Positions 854-23,354 are shown, counted from the first letter of the stretch. The stretch is DNA of 64,000 nt from an uncultured Mucilaginibacter sp. (GCA_903915155.1 CAIWRU010000018.1:2344-66343); one strand, 5' to 3'. Numbers and translations are program-made. Notes: generated by a model from the sequence alone, not told the origin.

Positions 854-3667
854 TCAATGCGCCTCCAACCAATTCAATCCCGTCCCAATCTCCACCATAA
901 TAGGCACGGTAGTTTTAATGGCGTTTTTCATGTTGAGTAGAATGATGGGTTTTACGGTTTCCACTTCTTCGTTGGGTACGTCAAACACCAACTCATCATG
1001 CACCTGCATGGTCATGCGGGCGTTTAGTTTTTGGGCCACAAATTCGCGGTGGATGTTGATCATGGCTATTTTTATCATGTCGGCAGCCGAACCTTGTATC
1101 GGCGCGTTGATGGCATTTCGCTCGGCGAAGCCGCGTACGGTAGCATTGGCCGAGTTAATGTCGCGCAGGTAGCGGCGGCGGCCCATGAGGGTGGTAACGT
1201 AGCCGTTCTCACGGGCAAAGTTCATGGTATCGCTCATGTAGTTTTTTATGCCGGGGAACTGCGCGAAATAGTTGTCGATAATGTCGGCAGCTTCCTTACG
1301 CGGAATGCCCAGGCTTTGCGACAAACCAAATGCCGACTGCCCGTAAATGATACCGAAGTTCACGGCCTTGGCATTGCGGCGCTGGGTACTGTCCACCTCG
1401 TCCAAGCCTATGCCGTACACATTGGCGGCAGTAGCGGTGTGGATGTCGAGGTTTTTAACGAAGGCCTCCATCATGTTAGCGTCCTTGCTTATTTCGGCTA
1501 TGATACGAAGTTCGATCTGTGAATAATCCGCAGAAACGATAACATGCCCGCTGTCGCGCGGGATAAATGCCTTGCGCACCTCGCGGCCGCGTTCGGTACG
1601 GATAGGGATATTCTGCAGGTTGGGATTGGTGGAGCTTAATCGCCCGGTGGCAGCAACCGCCTGGTTGTAGGAAGTATGCACACGCCCTGTTTTGGCATTC
1701 ACCATTTGCGGCAGCGCATCAACATAGGTTGATTTTAGTTTTTGCAGCTGGCGGTAGTCTAAAATATCGCGCACAATATCGCTCTTTGCGGCTAAAGCCA
1801 ACAGCACATCCTCGCCGGTTTGGTATTGGCCTGTTTTGGTTTTTTTAGCTTTAGGGTCGAGCATTAATTTCTCGAACAATACCTCGCCCAGTTGTTTTGG
1901 CGATGCAATGTTGAAACGTACACCCGCTTTTTCATAAACTATTTTCTCCAGTTTGGCTACGTCGGTTTCCAGCTCTTTTGAGAATTCTTTTAGCGTATCG
2001 TGGTCTATTTTTACGCCTTCGTATTCAATATCGGCTAGAACATAGATCAGCGGGTTCTCAATTTCGTGCAGCAGCTTTTCGGCCTCTACGTCCTTTATTT
2101 TTGGCTCGAAAATTTGTTTTAATTGCAGGGTGATGTCGGCGTCTTCGGCAGCGTATTCTTTTATCTTTTCTATCTCCACATCGCGCATACTGCCCTGGCC
2201 TTTACCCTTGGCACCGATAAGCGCGGTGATGGATACCGGTTTGTAACCCAAATAATTTTCCGACAACACATCCATGCCGTGGCGGGTATCAGGGTCGATG
2301 ACATAATGCGCCATCATGGTATCAAACAAGGGGCCTTTTACTTCAATACCATACCATTTTAGCATCAGTATGTCGAACTTCAGGTTCTGGCCTATTTTAC
2401 CTATCGCGGCATCTTCAAGTACATCCTTAAATTCAGCTACTATTTTGGTGGTTTCGTCCTGGTCAGCAGGCACAGGTATGTACCATGCCTCGTTTGCTTT
2501 TATGGCGAACGACAGGCCTACCAATTCGCAAAAATTAGCGTCGGTGCCGGTTGTTTCGGTATCGAAGCAAAATTCCTTTTGCTTTTTTAGCAGGGCAATC
2601 AGTTCACTACGTTTCTCAAACGTATCAGCCAAATGGTATTCATGCGGTACACTATCGATATTTTTTGATGGTGCCGGTTCGTATGCAGGTTCGCCTATGT
2701 CCTGCACATCTACCGTCATGGTGGTGCGGCCGGTGGCTACCGGGTTGCCAAATAAATCGGTTTGGATGGAAACTGCTTTTAGTTCGGTAACGCTGAAATC
2801 ATCGCCAAACACGCGGCGACCCAATGTGCGGAATTCCAGTTCGGCAAACAGAGGTTCCAATAGTTCCTTACTTGGCGCACACATTTCCAACCCGGCTTCA
2901 TCCAGTTCAACAGGCGAATTCAGATTAATGGTGGCTAACCGTTTCGACATTAGTCCCTGCTCGGCAAATTGCTCCACGTTCTCGCGCATTTTGCCTTTTA
3001 GCTCGTGGCTATGGGCGATGATCTCTTCCACCGAGCCGTATTGTTTAATAAGCGCCTTGGCCGTTTTTTCGCCAATGCCGGGGATACCAGGGATGCCGTC
3101 GACCGCATCACCCCACAGGCCTAAAATATCTATCACCTGTTCAACACGTTCAATTTCCCATTTGTCCAGTACTTCCTTCACGCCCAAGATCTCCATTTCG
3201 TTACCCATGCGGGCAGGCTTGTAAATATGAATATTGGGCGATACCAACTGCGCGAAATCCTTATCGGGGGTCATGCAGTAAACCTGGTAGCCTTTTGCTT
3301 CGGCTTTTTTAGCCAGGGTGCCAATAATGTCATCGGCTTCGTAACCATCAGAAGTTATGAGTGGGATATTGAAACCCAAAACCACCTTAAATATATAGGG
3401 TAACGCTTTGGACAGGTCCTCAGGCATAGCCTCACGGTGGGCTTTGTATTTTTCGTATTCAGTGTGGCGTTCGGTAGGGGCGTCGGTATCAAAAACCACG
3501 GCCATATGGGTGGGTTTTTCCTTCTTCAAAACATCCAACAGCGTATTGGTAAAACCCATTACAGCCGATGTATTTAACCCGCCCGAAGTAAACCGCGGGC
3601 TTTTACTCAAAGCGAAATGCGCCCGGTAAATAAGCGCCATGCCATCCAAAAGAAATAGTTTTTTCAT
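854..3667 (-). CDS. polA: DNA polymerase I
   Basis: 5'-3' exonuclease start (LFLLDGMALIYRAHF), 3'-5' exo DTETT, polymerase motifs ADYSQIELR, RNAKAVNFGIIYG, MQVHDELVF; 937 aa. Confidence 0.99.
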   Translation of the reverse strand: MKKLFLLDGMALIYRAHFALSKSPRFTSGGLNTSAVMGFTNTLLDVLKKEKPTHMAVVFDTDAPTERHTEYEKYKAHREAMPEDLSKALPYIFKVVLGFNIPLITSDGYEADDIIGTLAKKAEAKGYQVYCMTPDKDFAQLVSPNIHIYKPARMGNEMEILGVKEVLDKWEIERVEQVIDILGLWGDAVDGIPGIPGIGEKTAKALIKQYGSVEEIIAHSHELKGKMRENVEQFAEQGLMSKRLATINLNSPVELDEAGLEMCAPSKELLEPLFAELEFRTLGRRVFGDDFSVTELKAVSIQTDLFGNPVATGRTTMTVDVQDIGEPAYEPAPSKNIDSVPHEYHLADTFEKRSELIALLKKQKEFCFDTETTGTDANFCELVGLSFAIKANEAWYIPVPADQDETTKIVAEFKDVLEDAAIGKIGQNLKFDILMLKWYGIEVKGPLFDTMMAHYVIDPDTRHGMDVLSENYLGYKPVSITALIGAKGKGQGSMRDVEIEKIKEYAAEDADITLQLKQIFEPKIKDVEAEKLLHEIENPLIYVLADIEYEGVKIDHDTLKEFSKELETDVAKLEKIVYEKAGVRFNIASPKQLGEVLFEKLMLDPKAKKTKTGQYQTGEDVLLALAAKSDIVRDILDYRQLQKLKSTYVDALPQMVNAKTGRVHTSYNQAVAATGRLSSTNPNLQNIPIRTERGREVRKAFIPRDSGHVIVSADYSQIELRIIAEISKDANMMEAFVKNLDIHTATAANVYGIGLDEVDSTQRRNAKAVNFGIIYGQSAFGLSQSLGIPRKEAADIIDNYFAQFPGIKNYMSDTMNFARENGYVTTLMGRRRYLRDINSANATVRGFAERNAINAPIQGSAADMIKIAMINIHREFVAQKLNARMTMQVHDELVFDVPNEEVETVKPIILLNMKNAIKTTVPIMVEIGTGLNWLEAH

Positions 3668-20345: not shown

Positions 20346-20403
20346 TAAGATGCCGGTCTCTCTCTTTAATTTTATACTAAATGAATTGCAATGTCGAAGC
20401 ATT

Positions 20404-20604
20404 TCATAAATAATGAATATCTTTTATAGCTATAATAGCATCATATCTATTCATAAGTTGGATGTTAGAAAAATCTTTTTTGGAATATCCGGAGTCCAAA
20501 AGATAAACCCGAATCGCTGCATTTTTATTAATGGCTTTTAAATTTCCTAAGTGTAAACTATTTTTATAAATAGCAAATAGTGAGTTTGTCAAATCCTTAT
20601 TCAT
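20404..20604 (-). CDS. Hypothetical 66-aa protein divergent from the C gene
   Basis: ATG ORF in the AT-rich islet; no motif recognised. Confidence 0.4.
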   Translation of the reverse strand: MNKDLTNSLFAIYKNSLHLGNLKAINKNAAIRVYLLDSGYSKKDFSNIQLMNRYDAIIAIKDIHYL

Positions 20605-20634
20605 TGGTAATTTTTAATCAAATATAAAAATAAA

Positions 20635-20667
20635 TTGACACTTATAGTCCGTTGACTTATAGTCAAC
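20635..20667 (+). promoter_or_regulatory. Tandem C-box operator overlapping a TTGACA-N17-TATAGT promoter
   Basis: CACT-TAT-AGTC (20639-20649) and GACT-TAT-AGTC (20654-20664), 15 bp apart; TTGACA 20635-20640; TATAGT 20658-20663. Confidence 0.88.
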
Positions 20668-20686
20668 AAAATACCAACTTGCTCAA

Positions 20687-20908
20687 ATGAGCATAAAGGT
20701 CAAAGTCGGCTTGAGGATAAAAGAACTCCGAAATAAAATTGGTATCTCCCAAGAGGCTTTAGCTAATAAGGCGGAAATTGACAGAACCTATGTTACCGAT
20801 GTTGAAAATGGCAGACGAAATATATCTATTGAAAATCTGGCTAAGCTTATTAATGCTTTAGAAATCCCATTTAAGGATTTTTTCGACTCCCCTAATTTCA
20901 ATAAATAA
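20687..20908 (+). CDS. Controller (C) protein-like XRE/HTH regulator
   Basis: 73 aa; SQEALANKAEIDRTYVTDVENGRRNISI, with the DRTY recognition-helix motif of R-M controller proteins; C-boxes directly upstream. Confidence 0.88.
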   Translation: MSIKVKVGLRIKELRNKIGISQEALANKAEIDRTYVTDVENGRRNISIENLAKLINALEIPFKDFFDSPNFNK

Positions 20909-22914
20909 TGGGAGCATTTTATTCAAATACTCTTGTCGATTTTATTGATGATGATAATGATTCAATTATTGGTTCTCTCACTACACAAGCTGGTGCAGCA
21001 GGTTTTCATCAACAACTACACACCCAAACTTTTTCTTGGATTGAAGAAATTAACATTCTAAAATCTTCATTTATTAAGTTGATTAGTGTTAATCCCAATG
21101 CGTCAACTTTTGGAATATTATTAGAATATCCAATTGCAAGAAGGGATAAAAGGATAGATGCAGTAATTATAGCTAATAATTTGATAATAGTAGTTGAATT
21201 TAAAGTGGGAAAATCAGAATATATAGGAATAGATAAAGAACAATTATTAGACTATTGTTTAGATATTAGGGATTTTCATTTTGAATCGAGAGATAAAATA
21301 ATTGTTCCTTTATTGGTGGCCACTACAGGCAATTCATTGTCAACTGAACTAATTAAAATTGAAAATTTTGTTCAAAATATTGTGTTCGCCAACTCGGAAG
21401 ATTTAAGTGACAAGCTAAATATTGTAATTAACAAGTTTAGTGATAGTACTTTCTTAATTAATTATATTAAATGGAATGAAAGTGACTATTCACCTACTCC
21501 AACCATAGTTGAAGCTGCTCGAACTTTATACGCTGGTAAATCTGTAACTGAAATAACGCGATCACATGCTAAAAGGATCAATTTGACCAAAACTACAGAT
21601 GCTGTTATTAATGCAATAACTTTAGCAAAAGCCAGCAATCAAAAAATTATTTGTTTCATTACAGGGGTACCAGGTGCTGGAAAAACTTTAGCCGGTCTTA
21701 ATATCGCCCATCACAAAGATTTTCAAAATAAAGAGGGTTCCTTATCAACTTTTCTTTCAGGCAATGTTCCCTTAATTAAAGTCTTGCGTACAGCTTTATC
21801 GCGTGATGCAAATAAGAAATTAAAAAAAGCAGGATCTTCAGCTAAAGTAAAAGAATCCGAAAGAATTATTGCTTTCATAGAGAATGTTCACAATTATTTT
21901 AAGTTGTACTATACAGACGAAAAAATACCGAATAGAAAAATTGCTAATAATAAAATTGTAATTTTTGACGAGGCACAAAGAGCATGGGATGCAGAACAAT
22001 CGATGAAAAAATTTCAAAGAAATTCTTCAGAGCCAGAAATGATGTTTGAGATTATGAATAGGCATGATGATTGGGCTGTAATTGTTGCTTTGGTTGGCGG
22101 TGGACAAGAAATAAATACTGGTGAAGCCGGTTTACCGGAATGGGGAAGAGTTATTGAAGAAAAATATAATAATTGGAAAGTATATATATCGCCTCAACTC
22201 AAAATTGGAGATCATAGTACCGGTAACCTTACATTATTCAACATCCTGCCAAAAAATGTCGAAATTATTGAAGATCCATCATTGCATTTAAATGTATCCT
22301 TACGCTCTTACAAAGCCGAAGATTTATCTAATTGGGTTAGTCTTGTCTTGACAGATAAATCAAATGAAGCAAAAGAAATTTTTAAAAATAAATTATCCAA
22401 ATATCCAATAGTGTTGACTAGAGATTTAGAAAAAGCAAAAAGTTGGCTTAAAGATAAATGTCAAGGTTCAAGAAGAATGGGCTTAGTTGCGAGTTCAGGT
22501 GGTAGGCGATTAAAAGCAACAGGCTTAGATGTCAGGACAGAATTCGAACCTGCTGAATGGTTTTTAAATGACCGCAATGATGTGAGATCATCCTATTATT
22601 TAGAAATTCCGGCTACTGAATACAAAGTGCAAGGATTAGAATTGGATTGGGCGGGCGTATGCTGGGATATTGATTTATTCAGGGATAAGAACAAATGGAT
22701 TTTTAAAACTTTTTCAGGATATAAATGGAATAACGCAAATACTCTTGAAAAGAGGAAATATATAATTAATAAATATAGAGTTCTGCTAACAAGGGCAAGA
22801 GAGGGAATGATAATTTTTATTCCCAAAGGAAGTAGTGACGATCATACGAGAAACCCAGGCCATTACAATTCGATAGTGGATTATCTTATTTCCTGTGGGG
22901 TACCTGAACTATAA
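20908..22914 (+). CDS. PD-(D/E)xK nuclease + SF1 helicase (DUF2075 / Schlafen group 3-like) protein
   Basis: N-terminal E...RID...VEFK...QLLDY; Walker A GVPGAGKT; Walker B IFDEAQR; GGGQEI; EYKVQGLELD; YRVLLTRAR; TAATG overlap with the C gene. Confidence 0.88.
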   Translation: MGAFYSNTLVDFIDDDNDSIIGSLTTQAGAAGFHQQLHTQTFSWIEEINILKSSFIKLISVNPNASTFGILLEYPIARRDKRIDAVIIANNLIIVVEFKVGKSEYIGIDKEQLLDYCLDIRDFHFESRDKIIVPLLVATTGNSLSTELIKIENFVQNIVFANSEDLSDKLNIVINKFSDSTFLINYIKWNESDYSPTPTIVEAARTLYAGKSVTEITRSHAKRINLTKTTDAVINAITLAKASNQKIICFITGVPGAGKTLAGLNIAHHKDFQNKEGSLSTFLSGNVPLIKVLRTALSRDANKKLKKAGSSAKVKESERIIAFIENVHNYFKLYYTDEKIPNRKIANNKIVIFDEAQRAWDAEQSMKKFQRNSSEPEMMFEIMNRHDDWAVIVALVGGGQEINTGEAGLPEWGRVIEEKYNNWKVYISPQLKIGDHSTGNLTLFNILPKNVEIIEDPSLHLNVSLRSYKAEDLSNWVSLVLTDKSNEAKEIFKNKLSKYPIVLTRDLEKAKSWLKDKCQGSRRMGLVASSGGRRLKATGLDVRTEFEPAEWFLNDRNDVRSSYYLEIPATEYKVQGLELDWAGVCWDIDLFRDKNKWIFKTFSGYKWNNANTLEKRKYIINKYRVLLTRAREGMIIFIPKGSSDDHTRNPGHYNSIVDYLISCGVPEL

Positions 22915-23114
22915 CTCCTCGTTTCCTTACTGTGTACATCGGCCATAGTGTAAAATTAAACAACATTTTCGTGGTTTGGTTCGGGGTTCCTGGCCCGGGT
23001 TGCGCGTGGGTAGTAAAAAAATCGCGTTCACGGTTATTCACCACTTTTGAACGCTGGAAAATGTTTAAACTTCTGTTTATTAACGCCTTAAGTGTTTGGG
23101 GGTGTATGGGTAGC

Positions 23115-23213
23115 GTTTATGTTTGTTTCGGTTTGTTTGGGCTCGTTTGGGTACTGTTTATGGGGTGTTTAGGCCCTGTTTAGGTGGTGTTTGGGTTCGT
23201 TTAGGCTATGTTT
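23115..23213. other. Helically phased GTTT tracts in a G/T-skewed segment
   Basis: GTTT at 23115, 23125, 23135, 23145, 23156, 23167, 23178, 23189, 23199, 23210 (95 bp over 9 intervals). Confidence 0.7.
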
Positions 23214-23310
23214 GGGTTATGCCAATTTGCTGATATCCAATGAAAAGTGAACGCGCCAAAAAGCATTCAAAACAGGCAGTTTGATAGTTGGCGGTTTGCG
23301 TGCATCGGCT

Positions 23311-23318
23311 TACCTTTG
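23311..23318 (+). promoter_or_regulatory. Bacteroidota sigma-A -7 box
   Basis: TACCTTTG matches TAnnTTTG, 38 nt upstream of the ATG at 23357. Confidence 0.45.
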
Positions 23319-23331
23319 CATACCTTCAACT

Positions 23332-23354
23332 CCCCCTTTAGGGGGTTGGGGGGC
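23332..23354. repeat. 23-bp REP-like element, copy 1
   Basis: ccccctttagggggttggggggc, identical to 47336-47358. Confidence 0.8.

Follow-up and report, generated by a model that had tools for sequence, protein, structure and literature searches.

A putative C-protein operator and a predicted leaderless controller gene ahead of a PDC-S41 defense candidate in an uncultured Mucilaginibacter

This analysis concerns a 35-bp element of the kind bound by controller (C) proteins, together with the genes that it precedes, in a 64,000-nucleotide (nt) stretch of DNA from an uncultured Mucilaginibacter sp. (GCA_903915155.1, CAIWRU010000018.1:2344-66343), referred to below as the window; positions are counted from its first letter. 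The reading that we prefer, and consider reasonably probable, is that a canonical C switch of the DRTY type (that of C.Esp1396I, C.AhdI, and C.BclI) governs a leaderless bicistronic mRNA encoding the C protein and a PDC-S41 protein. The firm part of this reading, observed directly, is which kind of protein the C gene encodes, how the operator is built, and that its elements and distances are conserved throughout the family.

The C protein and its operator

The gene downstream of the operator encodes a small protein which matches Pfam HTH_3 (4.7e-16), the PADLOC Control_protein family (9.6e-21), and, among structures in the PDB, C.BclI (8.5e-14) and C.AhdI (1.7e-12), both over 62-66 residues, and C.Esp1396I (2.5e-9). 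Its recognition helix is D32-R33-T34-Y35. Alignment places Glu25, Arg35, Thr36, and Arg46 of C.Esp1396I, of which the first is a bridging and activating residue and the others read the DNA, opposite E23, R33, T34, and R44 of the window protein, and these four residues are invariant across the 63 distinct relatives over which protein conservation was counted. The features of the subfamily are all present, namely a small single-domain helix-turn-helix (HTH) protein, a DRTY helix, a 35-bp operator, a gap of 17-18 nt, and an overlapping downstream gene; on sequence grounds the protein is a member of the DRTY, or C.Esp1396I-AhdI-BclI, controller subfamily.

Relatives were found by scanning genome contigs with the 668-amino-acid (aa) PDC-S41 protein, which gave one true relative (locus L005), and then by using the C protein on metagenome contigs, which gave 80 loci at 60-97% identity of the 149 found. 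Conservation is expressed below over 72 distinct related operators, mostly metagenomic, aligned on the start codon as a position matrix, and the distance to the ATG was counted over 79 loci. The features of the operator and the C gene are as follows.

20635-20669, plus strand: putative, sequence-based 35-bp bipartite C operator (OL, spacer, OR, and flanks), TTGACACTTATAGTCCGTTGACTTATAGTCAACAA
20635-20640, plus strand: TTGACA, the −35 of an earlier prediction; first T only in the window and L038, A in 70/72
20636-20637, plus strand: outer TG within TTGACA, equivalent to T2G3 of Esp1396I (read by Arg35); T in 70/72 and G in 72/72 relatives
20639-20649, plus strand: box 1, or OL (distal), CACTTATAGTC, CACT-TAT-AGTC; center 20644/45, at −42.5 from the ATG
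20650-20653, plus strand: inter-operator spacer CGTT with the conserved central GT, its TT opening the −35/−33 TTG; invariant in 72/72
20654-20664, plus strand: box 2, or OR (proximal), GACTTATAGTC, GACT-TAT-AGTC; center 20659/60, at −27.5
20651-20667, plus strand: perfect 17-bp palindrome, GTTGACTTATAGTCAAC, comprising box 2 and its flanks
20658-20663, plus strand: TATAGT, the −10 of the earlier prediction, inside box 2; at its last base 34 of the 72 relatives have T, 36 have G, and 2 have A
20667-20668, plus strand: outer CA (bottom strand TG), corresponding to C33A34 of Esp1396I; C in 72/72 and A in 71/72 relatives
20687-20908, plus strand: C (controller) gene, 73 aa, HTH_3, DRTY recognition helix; Pfam, PDB, and PADLOC matches

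That earlier prediction, made from the DNA alone and called here the original prediction, had described two boxes, a palindrome, two promoter-like hexamers, and spacings of 15 and 17 bp; all of these are present at the positions listed. The box centers at 20644 and 20659 lie 15 bp apart, the gap between TTGACA and TATAGT is exactly 17 bp, and 17 nt separate the operator from the ATG of the C gene (20669 to 20687). A single copy of the pattern ACTN3AGTCN4GACTN3AGT is present in the window, 100 shuffles contain no copy, and in the 3.73-Mb genome it has a single occurrence at zero mismatches. A chance origin of the double-box pattern is excluded. The proposal that this is a C-box pair of the Esp1396I/DRTY type ahead of a true C-protein gene is thus borne out by both the protein matches and the operator. 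The GAC at 20637-20639 was also considered as a shifted OL half-site and rejected: the GAC/GTC centers would then be 10 bp apart, the Esp1396I structures tolerate 7-8 bp, and the G is already accounted for as the Arg35 contact.

Across the family the architecture can be written as aATGAC(A/C)CTTA(T/A)AGTCCGTTGACTTA(T/A)A(G/A)(T/G)C(A/C)ACA(A/T)T - N4-5 - xA(C/A)CTTxC - N4 - ATG, in which the operator core AGTCCGTTG is invariant and the distance from core to ATG is 38 nt at 69/79 loci. One divergent case is L082, where the C start is 66 nt from the operator core, the usual ATG position reads TTA, and the open reading frame (ORF) begins 28 nt further downstream; this locus retains the operator and the −10 block and could be a decaying copy or one with a leader.

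The operator of C.Esp1396I given in the original prediction, ATGTGACTTATAGTCCGTGTGATTATAGTCAACAT, is correct (PMC2504287). This Enterobacter sp. system (PDB 3CLC; PMC2504287, PMC2691842, PMC3488213) has the same base at 27 of the 35 operator positions, including all those that are directly read. The two also agree in the TAT(A) centers 15 bp apart, the outer TG/CA and central GT (T2G3, G17T18, and C33A34), the DRTY helix, the placing of the −35 in the spacer and left half of OR, and a downstream toxic gene (putatively so in the window) which overlaps the C gene. In the mapped CR promoter of Esp1396I, a −35 of GTGTGA occupies the same operator positions and is followed by a weak −10, with the distal site activating and the proximal site repressing (PMC2691842). 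The systems differ in the spacer, which is CGTT here and CGTG in Esp1396I, the former making a good TTGACT −35; in the mRNA, which in Esp1396I has a 27-nt leader and a Shine-Dalgarno sequence, whereas the 17-nt gap here predicts a leaderless one; and in the absence here of a methyltransferase and of an OM site (the genome holds this operator only once), the host primary sigma factor being different as well.

C.BclI (PDB 2B5A) and C.AhdI (1Y7Y) are the closest solved C proteins and belong to the same DRTY subfamily; they control classical Type II restriction-modification (R-M) systems in Firmicutes or Proteobacteria, and the comparison with them is one of protein sequence. The CR mRNA of AhdI is reported to be leaderless (as cited in PMC2691842 and PMC2632904). 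C.PvuII (PMC2175313, PMC2647307) shares the two boxes 15 bp apart, a box 1A with its first base off consensus (TACT, compared with CACT here), a leaderless C-dependent mRNA (predicted here), a −35 overlapping OR, a divergent gene adjoining the operator, and promoter-like hexamers within the boxes. It is of the HRTY/TGTA class, unlike the DRTY/CGTT system of the window, and a CGTx spacer is known to co-vary with a DRTY recognition helix (PMC2647307). In PvuII the divergent gene is the methyltransferase and the cargo a Type II endonuclease, whereas the window has a 66-aa protein and a PDC-S41 helicase-nuclease in these places.

The promoter and the predicted transcription start

The original prediction took TTGACA and TATAGT as the operative promoter, with a start near 20670. 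When the low-GC islet which holds these genes is scanned with the sigma-70 consensus, TTGACA-17-TATAGT ranks first at 11/12, but the comparison with relatives speaks against its use, since the first T of the −35 is found in just 2/72 and the last T of the −10, which is essential in a −10 of the sigma-70 type, in 34/72 (G in 36). The operator itself accounts for what remains of the two hexamers: TG is T2G3, TATA is the bend center, and GTC is read by Arg46 and Thr36. Judged by this alignment, the −35/−10-like hexamers within the C-boxes are by-products of the operator and are therefore not to be read as evidence of foreign origin. The T at 20635, which turns the family ATGACA into TTGACA, is otherwise found only in L038, whose C protein is 97% identical; this base may be neutral, or it may be an up-mutation of the upstream promoter-like site that is specific to the lineage.

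The elements that are conserved lie partly in the operator and partly downstream of it.

20652-20657, plus strand: TTGACT, the conserved promoter's −35 hexamer, or −33 TTG in Bacteroidota terms; TTG in 72/72
20675-20682, plus strand: CAACTT(GC), weak −10/−7 element 17 bp after TTGACT; consensus xA(C/A)CTTxC
20687, plus strand: predicted transcription start on the A of the C start codon, giving a leaderless mRNA
20680-20693, plus strand: inverted repeat TGCTC-AAAT-GAGCA over the start codon

TTGACT straddles the spacer CGTT, which is invariant, and the left half of box 2. In the downstream hexamer CAACTT (20675-20680), which ends 6 nt ahead of the ATG, the A at position 2 and the T at positions 5 and 6 are each found in 72/72, and the six bases preceding it are variable. 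The position matrix thus indicates that TTGACT-17-xAxCTT, and not TTGACA-17-TATAGT, is the conserved promoter, and these elements would place the start at the ATG, 20687, instead of near 20670. An operator-to-ATG gap of 17-18 nt is the peak that marks leaderless C genes in an earlier survey, in which a −10 element could not be found for them (PMC2632904); the present family shows a clear one, xAxCTT, at a fixed position.

The literature agrees with the original prediction that the Bacteroidota sigma-A uses TTTG and TAnnTTTG (PMC7366714, PMC9723704), the −7 box spanning −12 to −5 (PMC9723704). At −12 to −5 the window reads CAACTTGC, with 3/6 of the specified TAnnTTTG bases, the matching A, T, and T being family-invariant, and GTTG occupies −36 to −33. 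Two more distant relatives, L030 and L010, have TACTTTTC and AATATTTG, respectively, in place of CAACTTGC, and each of these matches TAnnTTTG at 5/6. A −7 box at −12 to −5 puts +1 on the A of the ATG, so that the two ways of reading the promoter agree, and both kinds of sigma factor could recognize the plus-strand TTG and xAnnTT.

RNA from 20670 to 20703 folds at a minimum free energy of −9.0 kcal/mol (z −4.96), with an outer ACC/GGT helix in addition to the inverted repeat. In such a model the hairpin would hide the AUG only on transcripts begun upstream of 20680, and a leaderless RNA would be unable to form it. Relatives with GAT as second codon have another 5′ arm (TCCA/TGGA). Covariation of this hairpin was looked for and set aside: 4.15 paired bases compare with 3.93 in permutations (a value reached in 1/500), an effect too small, with relatedness uncontrolled, for any claim.

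Asymmetry of the two boxes

The original prediction had noted that the asymmetry of the boxes is reversed relative to C.Esp1396I, and in respect of that one system this is so: the window has its imperfect half-site in OL (CACT), Esp1396I in OR (TGAT). The asymmetry is real but family-wide, and no peculiarity of the locus. Among the 72 operators the outer half of box 1 is CACT in 51, CCCT in 17, and CACC or CTCT in 2 each, its first base being C in every one and GACT occurring in none, while the inner AGTC is invariant (72/72). For box 2 the outer half is AGTC in 33/72, mostly in the PDC-S41 sub-clade to which the window belongs, and degenerate (AGGC, AAGC, ATGC, and others) in 39/72. The alignment indicates a family rule in which inner half-sites are invariant and outer ones relaxed, with a perfected OR in the window's sub-clade.

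From the strong box over the −10 it had been suggested that C may act mainly as an autorepressor. This suggestion is not supported, for the outer base of box 1 is off consensus in 72/72 and costs a single contact. By the Esp1396I contact map, the change from G to C removes just the Thr36-cytosine hydrogen bond and leaves the Arg46 contacts, whereas the weak OR of Esp1396I (TGAT) loses both Thr36 and Arg46 contacts (PMC3351150). In wild-type PvuII, which has TACT at the same position, OL is still the first to fill and activation still takes place, and this holds for identical boxes too (PMC2647307). That C is mainly an autorepressor therefore does not follow from the sequence, and it stands as a possible, minority reading. 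By these contact rules OR is probably no weaker than OL in the window; Esp1396I shows the opposite order, with affinities of 5.6 nM for OL and 120 nM for OR. Since box 2 has all of the contact bases and box 1 lacks one, the window of activation may be narrow, making the switch a homeostat and not a delay timer; a narrow window of this kind would fit a system that has no methyltransferase to wait for.

The controlled gene and its surroundings

The C gene and its operator lie in a low-GC islet (~20350-23000) of ~30% GC, compared with ~50% in the flanks, a composition which marks the islet as clearly acquired. It contains a divergent 66-aa ORF, the C gene, and the PDC-S41 gene alone, and is flanked by genes for a response regulator and an MBL-fold hydrolase. 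Its other features are these.

20908-22914, plus strand: 668-aa PDC-S41 defense candidate with a Schlafen group-3/DUF2075 helicase; PADLOC and Pfam matches
20404-20604, minus strand: divergent 66-aa ORF, conserved in L005 (67 aa, 47% identity) and L051 (66 aa)
20619-20626, minus strand: exact Bacteroidota sigma-A −7 box (TAnnTTTG), TATATTTG; predicted start near 20614

The 668-aa protein is a full-length match to PADLOC PDC-S41 (2.6e-245) and contains the Pfam domain SLFN-g3_helicase (6.2e-76). The C gene's stop codon and the start of this gene overlap as TAATG, by which the two are translationally coupled. Neither Pfam nor PADLOC finds a methyltransferase domain in the three islet proteins; the arrangement is consequently a C-type switch, but not a C-controlled Type II R-M system. 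Beyond the right border of the islet, at 22915-23350, there is a G/T-rich stretch with phased GTTT tracts.

On the minus strand of the window, the −7 box of the divergent gene is 9 nt from the operator. A TAnnTTTG on that same strand is found 15-31 nt from the operator core in 34/72 relatives, compared with 0-2/72 for three control patterns.

Proposed regulation and alternative readings

Binding, the start site, activation, and the order in which the boxes fill are matters that we infer from the DNA and protein sequences. A weak promoter would consist of TTGACT (20652-20657) as −35/−33 and CAACTT (20675-20680) as −10/−7, with its start at 20687. A C dimer at OL, centered at −42.5, which is the position of lambda cI at OR2, would activate it through Glu23 acting upon an Arg of sigma region 4.2, and a second dimer, binding cooperatively to OR at −27.5, would occlude the −35 and turn the promoter off. 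The outcome would be a self-limiting, copy-number-independent expression of a putatively toxic effector. C bound at OL would also cover the −30 region of the divergent Bacteroidota-type promoter (−7 box 20626-20619) of the small partner gene. The resemblance to the class II activation by lambda cI at OR2/PRM, where an activator dimer near −42 sits beside the −35 and a second, cooperative site represses, is a geometric analogy only, since that protein belongs to another family and has another operator. It is by analogy with lambda cI that contact between an acidic HTH residue and Arg588 of sigma has been proposed for C proteins (PMC2504287); the host sigma-A retains TRERVRQ, that is, the equivalent of Arg588 (by comparison with an E. 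coli probe sequence).

Several points weigh against this mechanism. To our knowledge, no C protein has been seen to activate a Bacteroidota sigma-A. CAACTT fits both consensuses poorly, at 2/6 for TATAAT and 3/6 for TAnnTTTG, and with box 2 at least equal to box 1 by the Esp1396I contact rules, activation before repression is not guaranteed. The upstream hexamers of the window and L038, an 11/12 match to sigma-70, could add a second start. Leaderless mRNAs account for ~4-5% of Bacteroidota genes (PMC9723704, PMC7366714).

Were the upstream hexamers used, two further readings would arise. In one, TTGACA/TATAGT is the working promoter with a start at ~20670, the perfect box covers its −10, and C is essentially an autorepressor without an activation phase. 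Being the best sigma-70-type match of the islet (11/12 with a 17-bp spacer), having the complete set of Esp1396I contact bases in box 2 and one fewer in box 1, and serving a methylase-less system which needs no delay timer, such a promoter has some appeal, but we consider the model quite unlikely: the variation at the first −35 and last −10 bases across relatives (T in 2/72 and 34/72, the latter with G in 36) runs counter to it, every hexamer base is already accounted for by contacts with C, and classical −35/−10 boxes are not used by the Bacteroidota sigma-A. It also leaves the invariant xAxCTT and its fixed 6-nt distance from the ATG without a role, an RNA begun at 20670 would fold its AUG into the −9.0 kcal/mol hairpin, and PvuII, with an off-consensus box 1A or with identical boxes, still binds OL first and activates. 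In the other, which we regard as unlikely, two overlapping promoters operate as in PvuII, the upstream one giving a C-independent, C-repressed, and poorly translated starter transcript (its AUG within the hairpin) and the downstream one a C-activated leaderless mRNA. PvuII does have such a pair interleaved with its C-boxes (PMC2175313), although its geometry differs, the −10 of the weak promoter lying in the 1B/spacer/2A segment (PMC2175313). A positive-feedback switch requires some C-independent priming, and the window and L038 have a −35 improved to TTGACA; half of the family, however, lacks the last T of the upstream −10, so that this is not a general route of priming, and Bacteroidota would not be expected to make good use of a sigma-70-type promoter. 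The z of −4.96 for the hairpin on the hypothetical leader is favorable to a poorly translated starter, but its family-wide covariation is weak (4.15 vs 3.93).

It is very improbable that the operator mainly represses the divergent small gene, with the C/effector operon constitutive at a low level, in the manner of Kpn2I-type arrangements, where the opposing promoter is the one on which C acts. The −7 box lies 4-9 nt from the operator flank in 34/72 relatives, the OL center is ~30 bp upstream of the predicted divergent start, and action of C on divergent or M promoters has precedents (PMC12707154); on the other hand, the divergent −7 box is missing from half of the relatives, and several lack a divergent gene so placed, yet the operator and downstream block are still invariant, and the fixed distance between operator and ATG indicates control of the C gene itself. 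A more far-reaching version of the C switch, which we put forward as a speculation and hold to be rather unlikely as a whole, is that the C switch of this Bacteroidota family has been retuned from a delay timer into a pure homeostat for methylase-less nucleases that are modification-dependent or otherwise self-toxic. OR would equal or exceed OL, the outer C of OL would be fixed, the promoter would be a hybrid for sigma-70 and Bacteroidota sigma-A, and the leaderless RNA alone would be translated, RNA from an upstream start hiding its AUG in the hairpin. The cassette would then be a portable "safe-expression head" shared among PDC-S41, SRA-HNH, McrB-like, and GmrSD genes and paired with divergent small proteins in the place of PvuII's methyltransferase.

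Cargo of the cassette and divergent genes

Full-length PDC-S41 proteins occur in ~27/401 genomes of the phylum, and a C gene stands upstream at just four PDC-S41 loci. The ~23 other full-length Bacteroidota PDC-S41 genes (L008-L029, ~40-44% identity to that of the window) lack an upstream C gene and likewise any TAnnTTTG within 90 nt, and so offered no contrast of use as to promoter type. Several groups of these loci have conserved upstream sequence in common; an example is GAATCCCTATAATTC...CAACCCCTCAA in L017, L020, L021, L026, and L027, which may be another regulatory element.

In relatives of the window system, the C gene and operator also head genes for SRA-HNH, HNH_2, McrB-like AAA_5, GmrSD, and small HNH proteins. 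At loci with C identities of 60-70% (L065-L117) these are ~235, 332, 462, 576, and 187 aa in size, respectively; examples, with positions, are L066 3225, L070 2945, L086 476, L094 3248, and L091 267. At the cargo loci among L065-L117 there is no methyltransferase gene in the slot right after C. The cargo consists of methylase-less nucleases of the Type IV kind or of defense candidates, and from these gene neighborhoods the cassette has the look of a regulatory head that is portable among Type IV-like nucleases. A survey of 2009 had already noted C genes outside R-M contexts (PMC2632904). The literature searched gave no account of C cassettes ahead of PDC-S41 or Type IV-like nucleases in Bacteroidota, an absence which is no proof of novelty.

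The divergent slot is where PvuII carries its methyltransferase. Most loci (L038-L117) have there a family of ~104 aa beginning M-NI-F-YLYRDGANYK; a second family is of 86 aa (MKKI-S-EELKKEA...FFI-LN-G-RSSKR), and a third, of 66-67 aa, is found in the window, L005, and L051. L005 bears both a 67-aa gene (2491-2694, minus strand) and a 100-aa gene (2102-2404, minus strand). No Pfam or PADLOC family matches these small proteins of 66, 86, and ~104 aa, which may be partners of the defense module. At L043 and L049 the divergent ORFs (255 and 261 aa) encode an HpaII-like Type II endonuclease (Pfam RE_HpaII, 1.9e-77), so that the C-PDC-S41 cassette is back to back with a classical restriction gene.

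Origin and host range

From the promoter type the original prediction had suggested an origin outside the phylum or a broad host range. The first of these is not supported by the relatives, the closest of which are from Bacteroidota or lie on contigs with Bacteroidota-type promoters. The closest named relative, L005, is in a Bacteroidota metagenome-assembled genome, with 68% identity in the effector, 88% in C, and the same operator at 20636-20668; L030 and L010 are in genomes of the window's own class. Shine-Dalgarno motifs precede just 2/41 ORFs in the window, and the exact −7 box of the divergent gene is likewise of the Bacteroidota type. A plasmid search with the C protein gave no relative above 57% identity, so no donor outside the phylum can be named, and a scan of viral contigs for the operator gave no matches and thus no sign of phage carriage. 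The exact pattern CTTANAGTCCGTTGACT was found among 400 genomes of the phylum in the window's own genome alone, a scan which is silent on other phyla; the cassette is accordingly rare among species representatives, despite the 149 metagenome relatives. On these comparisons the cassette seems to belong to Bacteroidota and not to have been brought in from another phylum. A broad host range of the switch is plausible, this being a known property of C proteins (PMC2647307).

Significance

C proteins are the textbook timers by which a methyltransferase is allowed to protect the genome before the restriction enzyme appears. In the window and its relatives a C switch with its contact residues, its geometry, and its leaderless spacing intact heads defense genes that have no methyltransferase. 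It offers a clean natural test of the purpose that a C switch serves where nothing has to be awaited, homeostasis as opposed to timing, and also of whether class-II-type activation via sigma region 4 carries over to the sigma-A of Bacteroidota.

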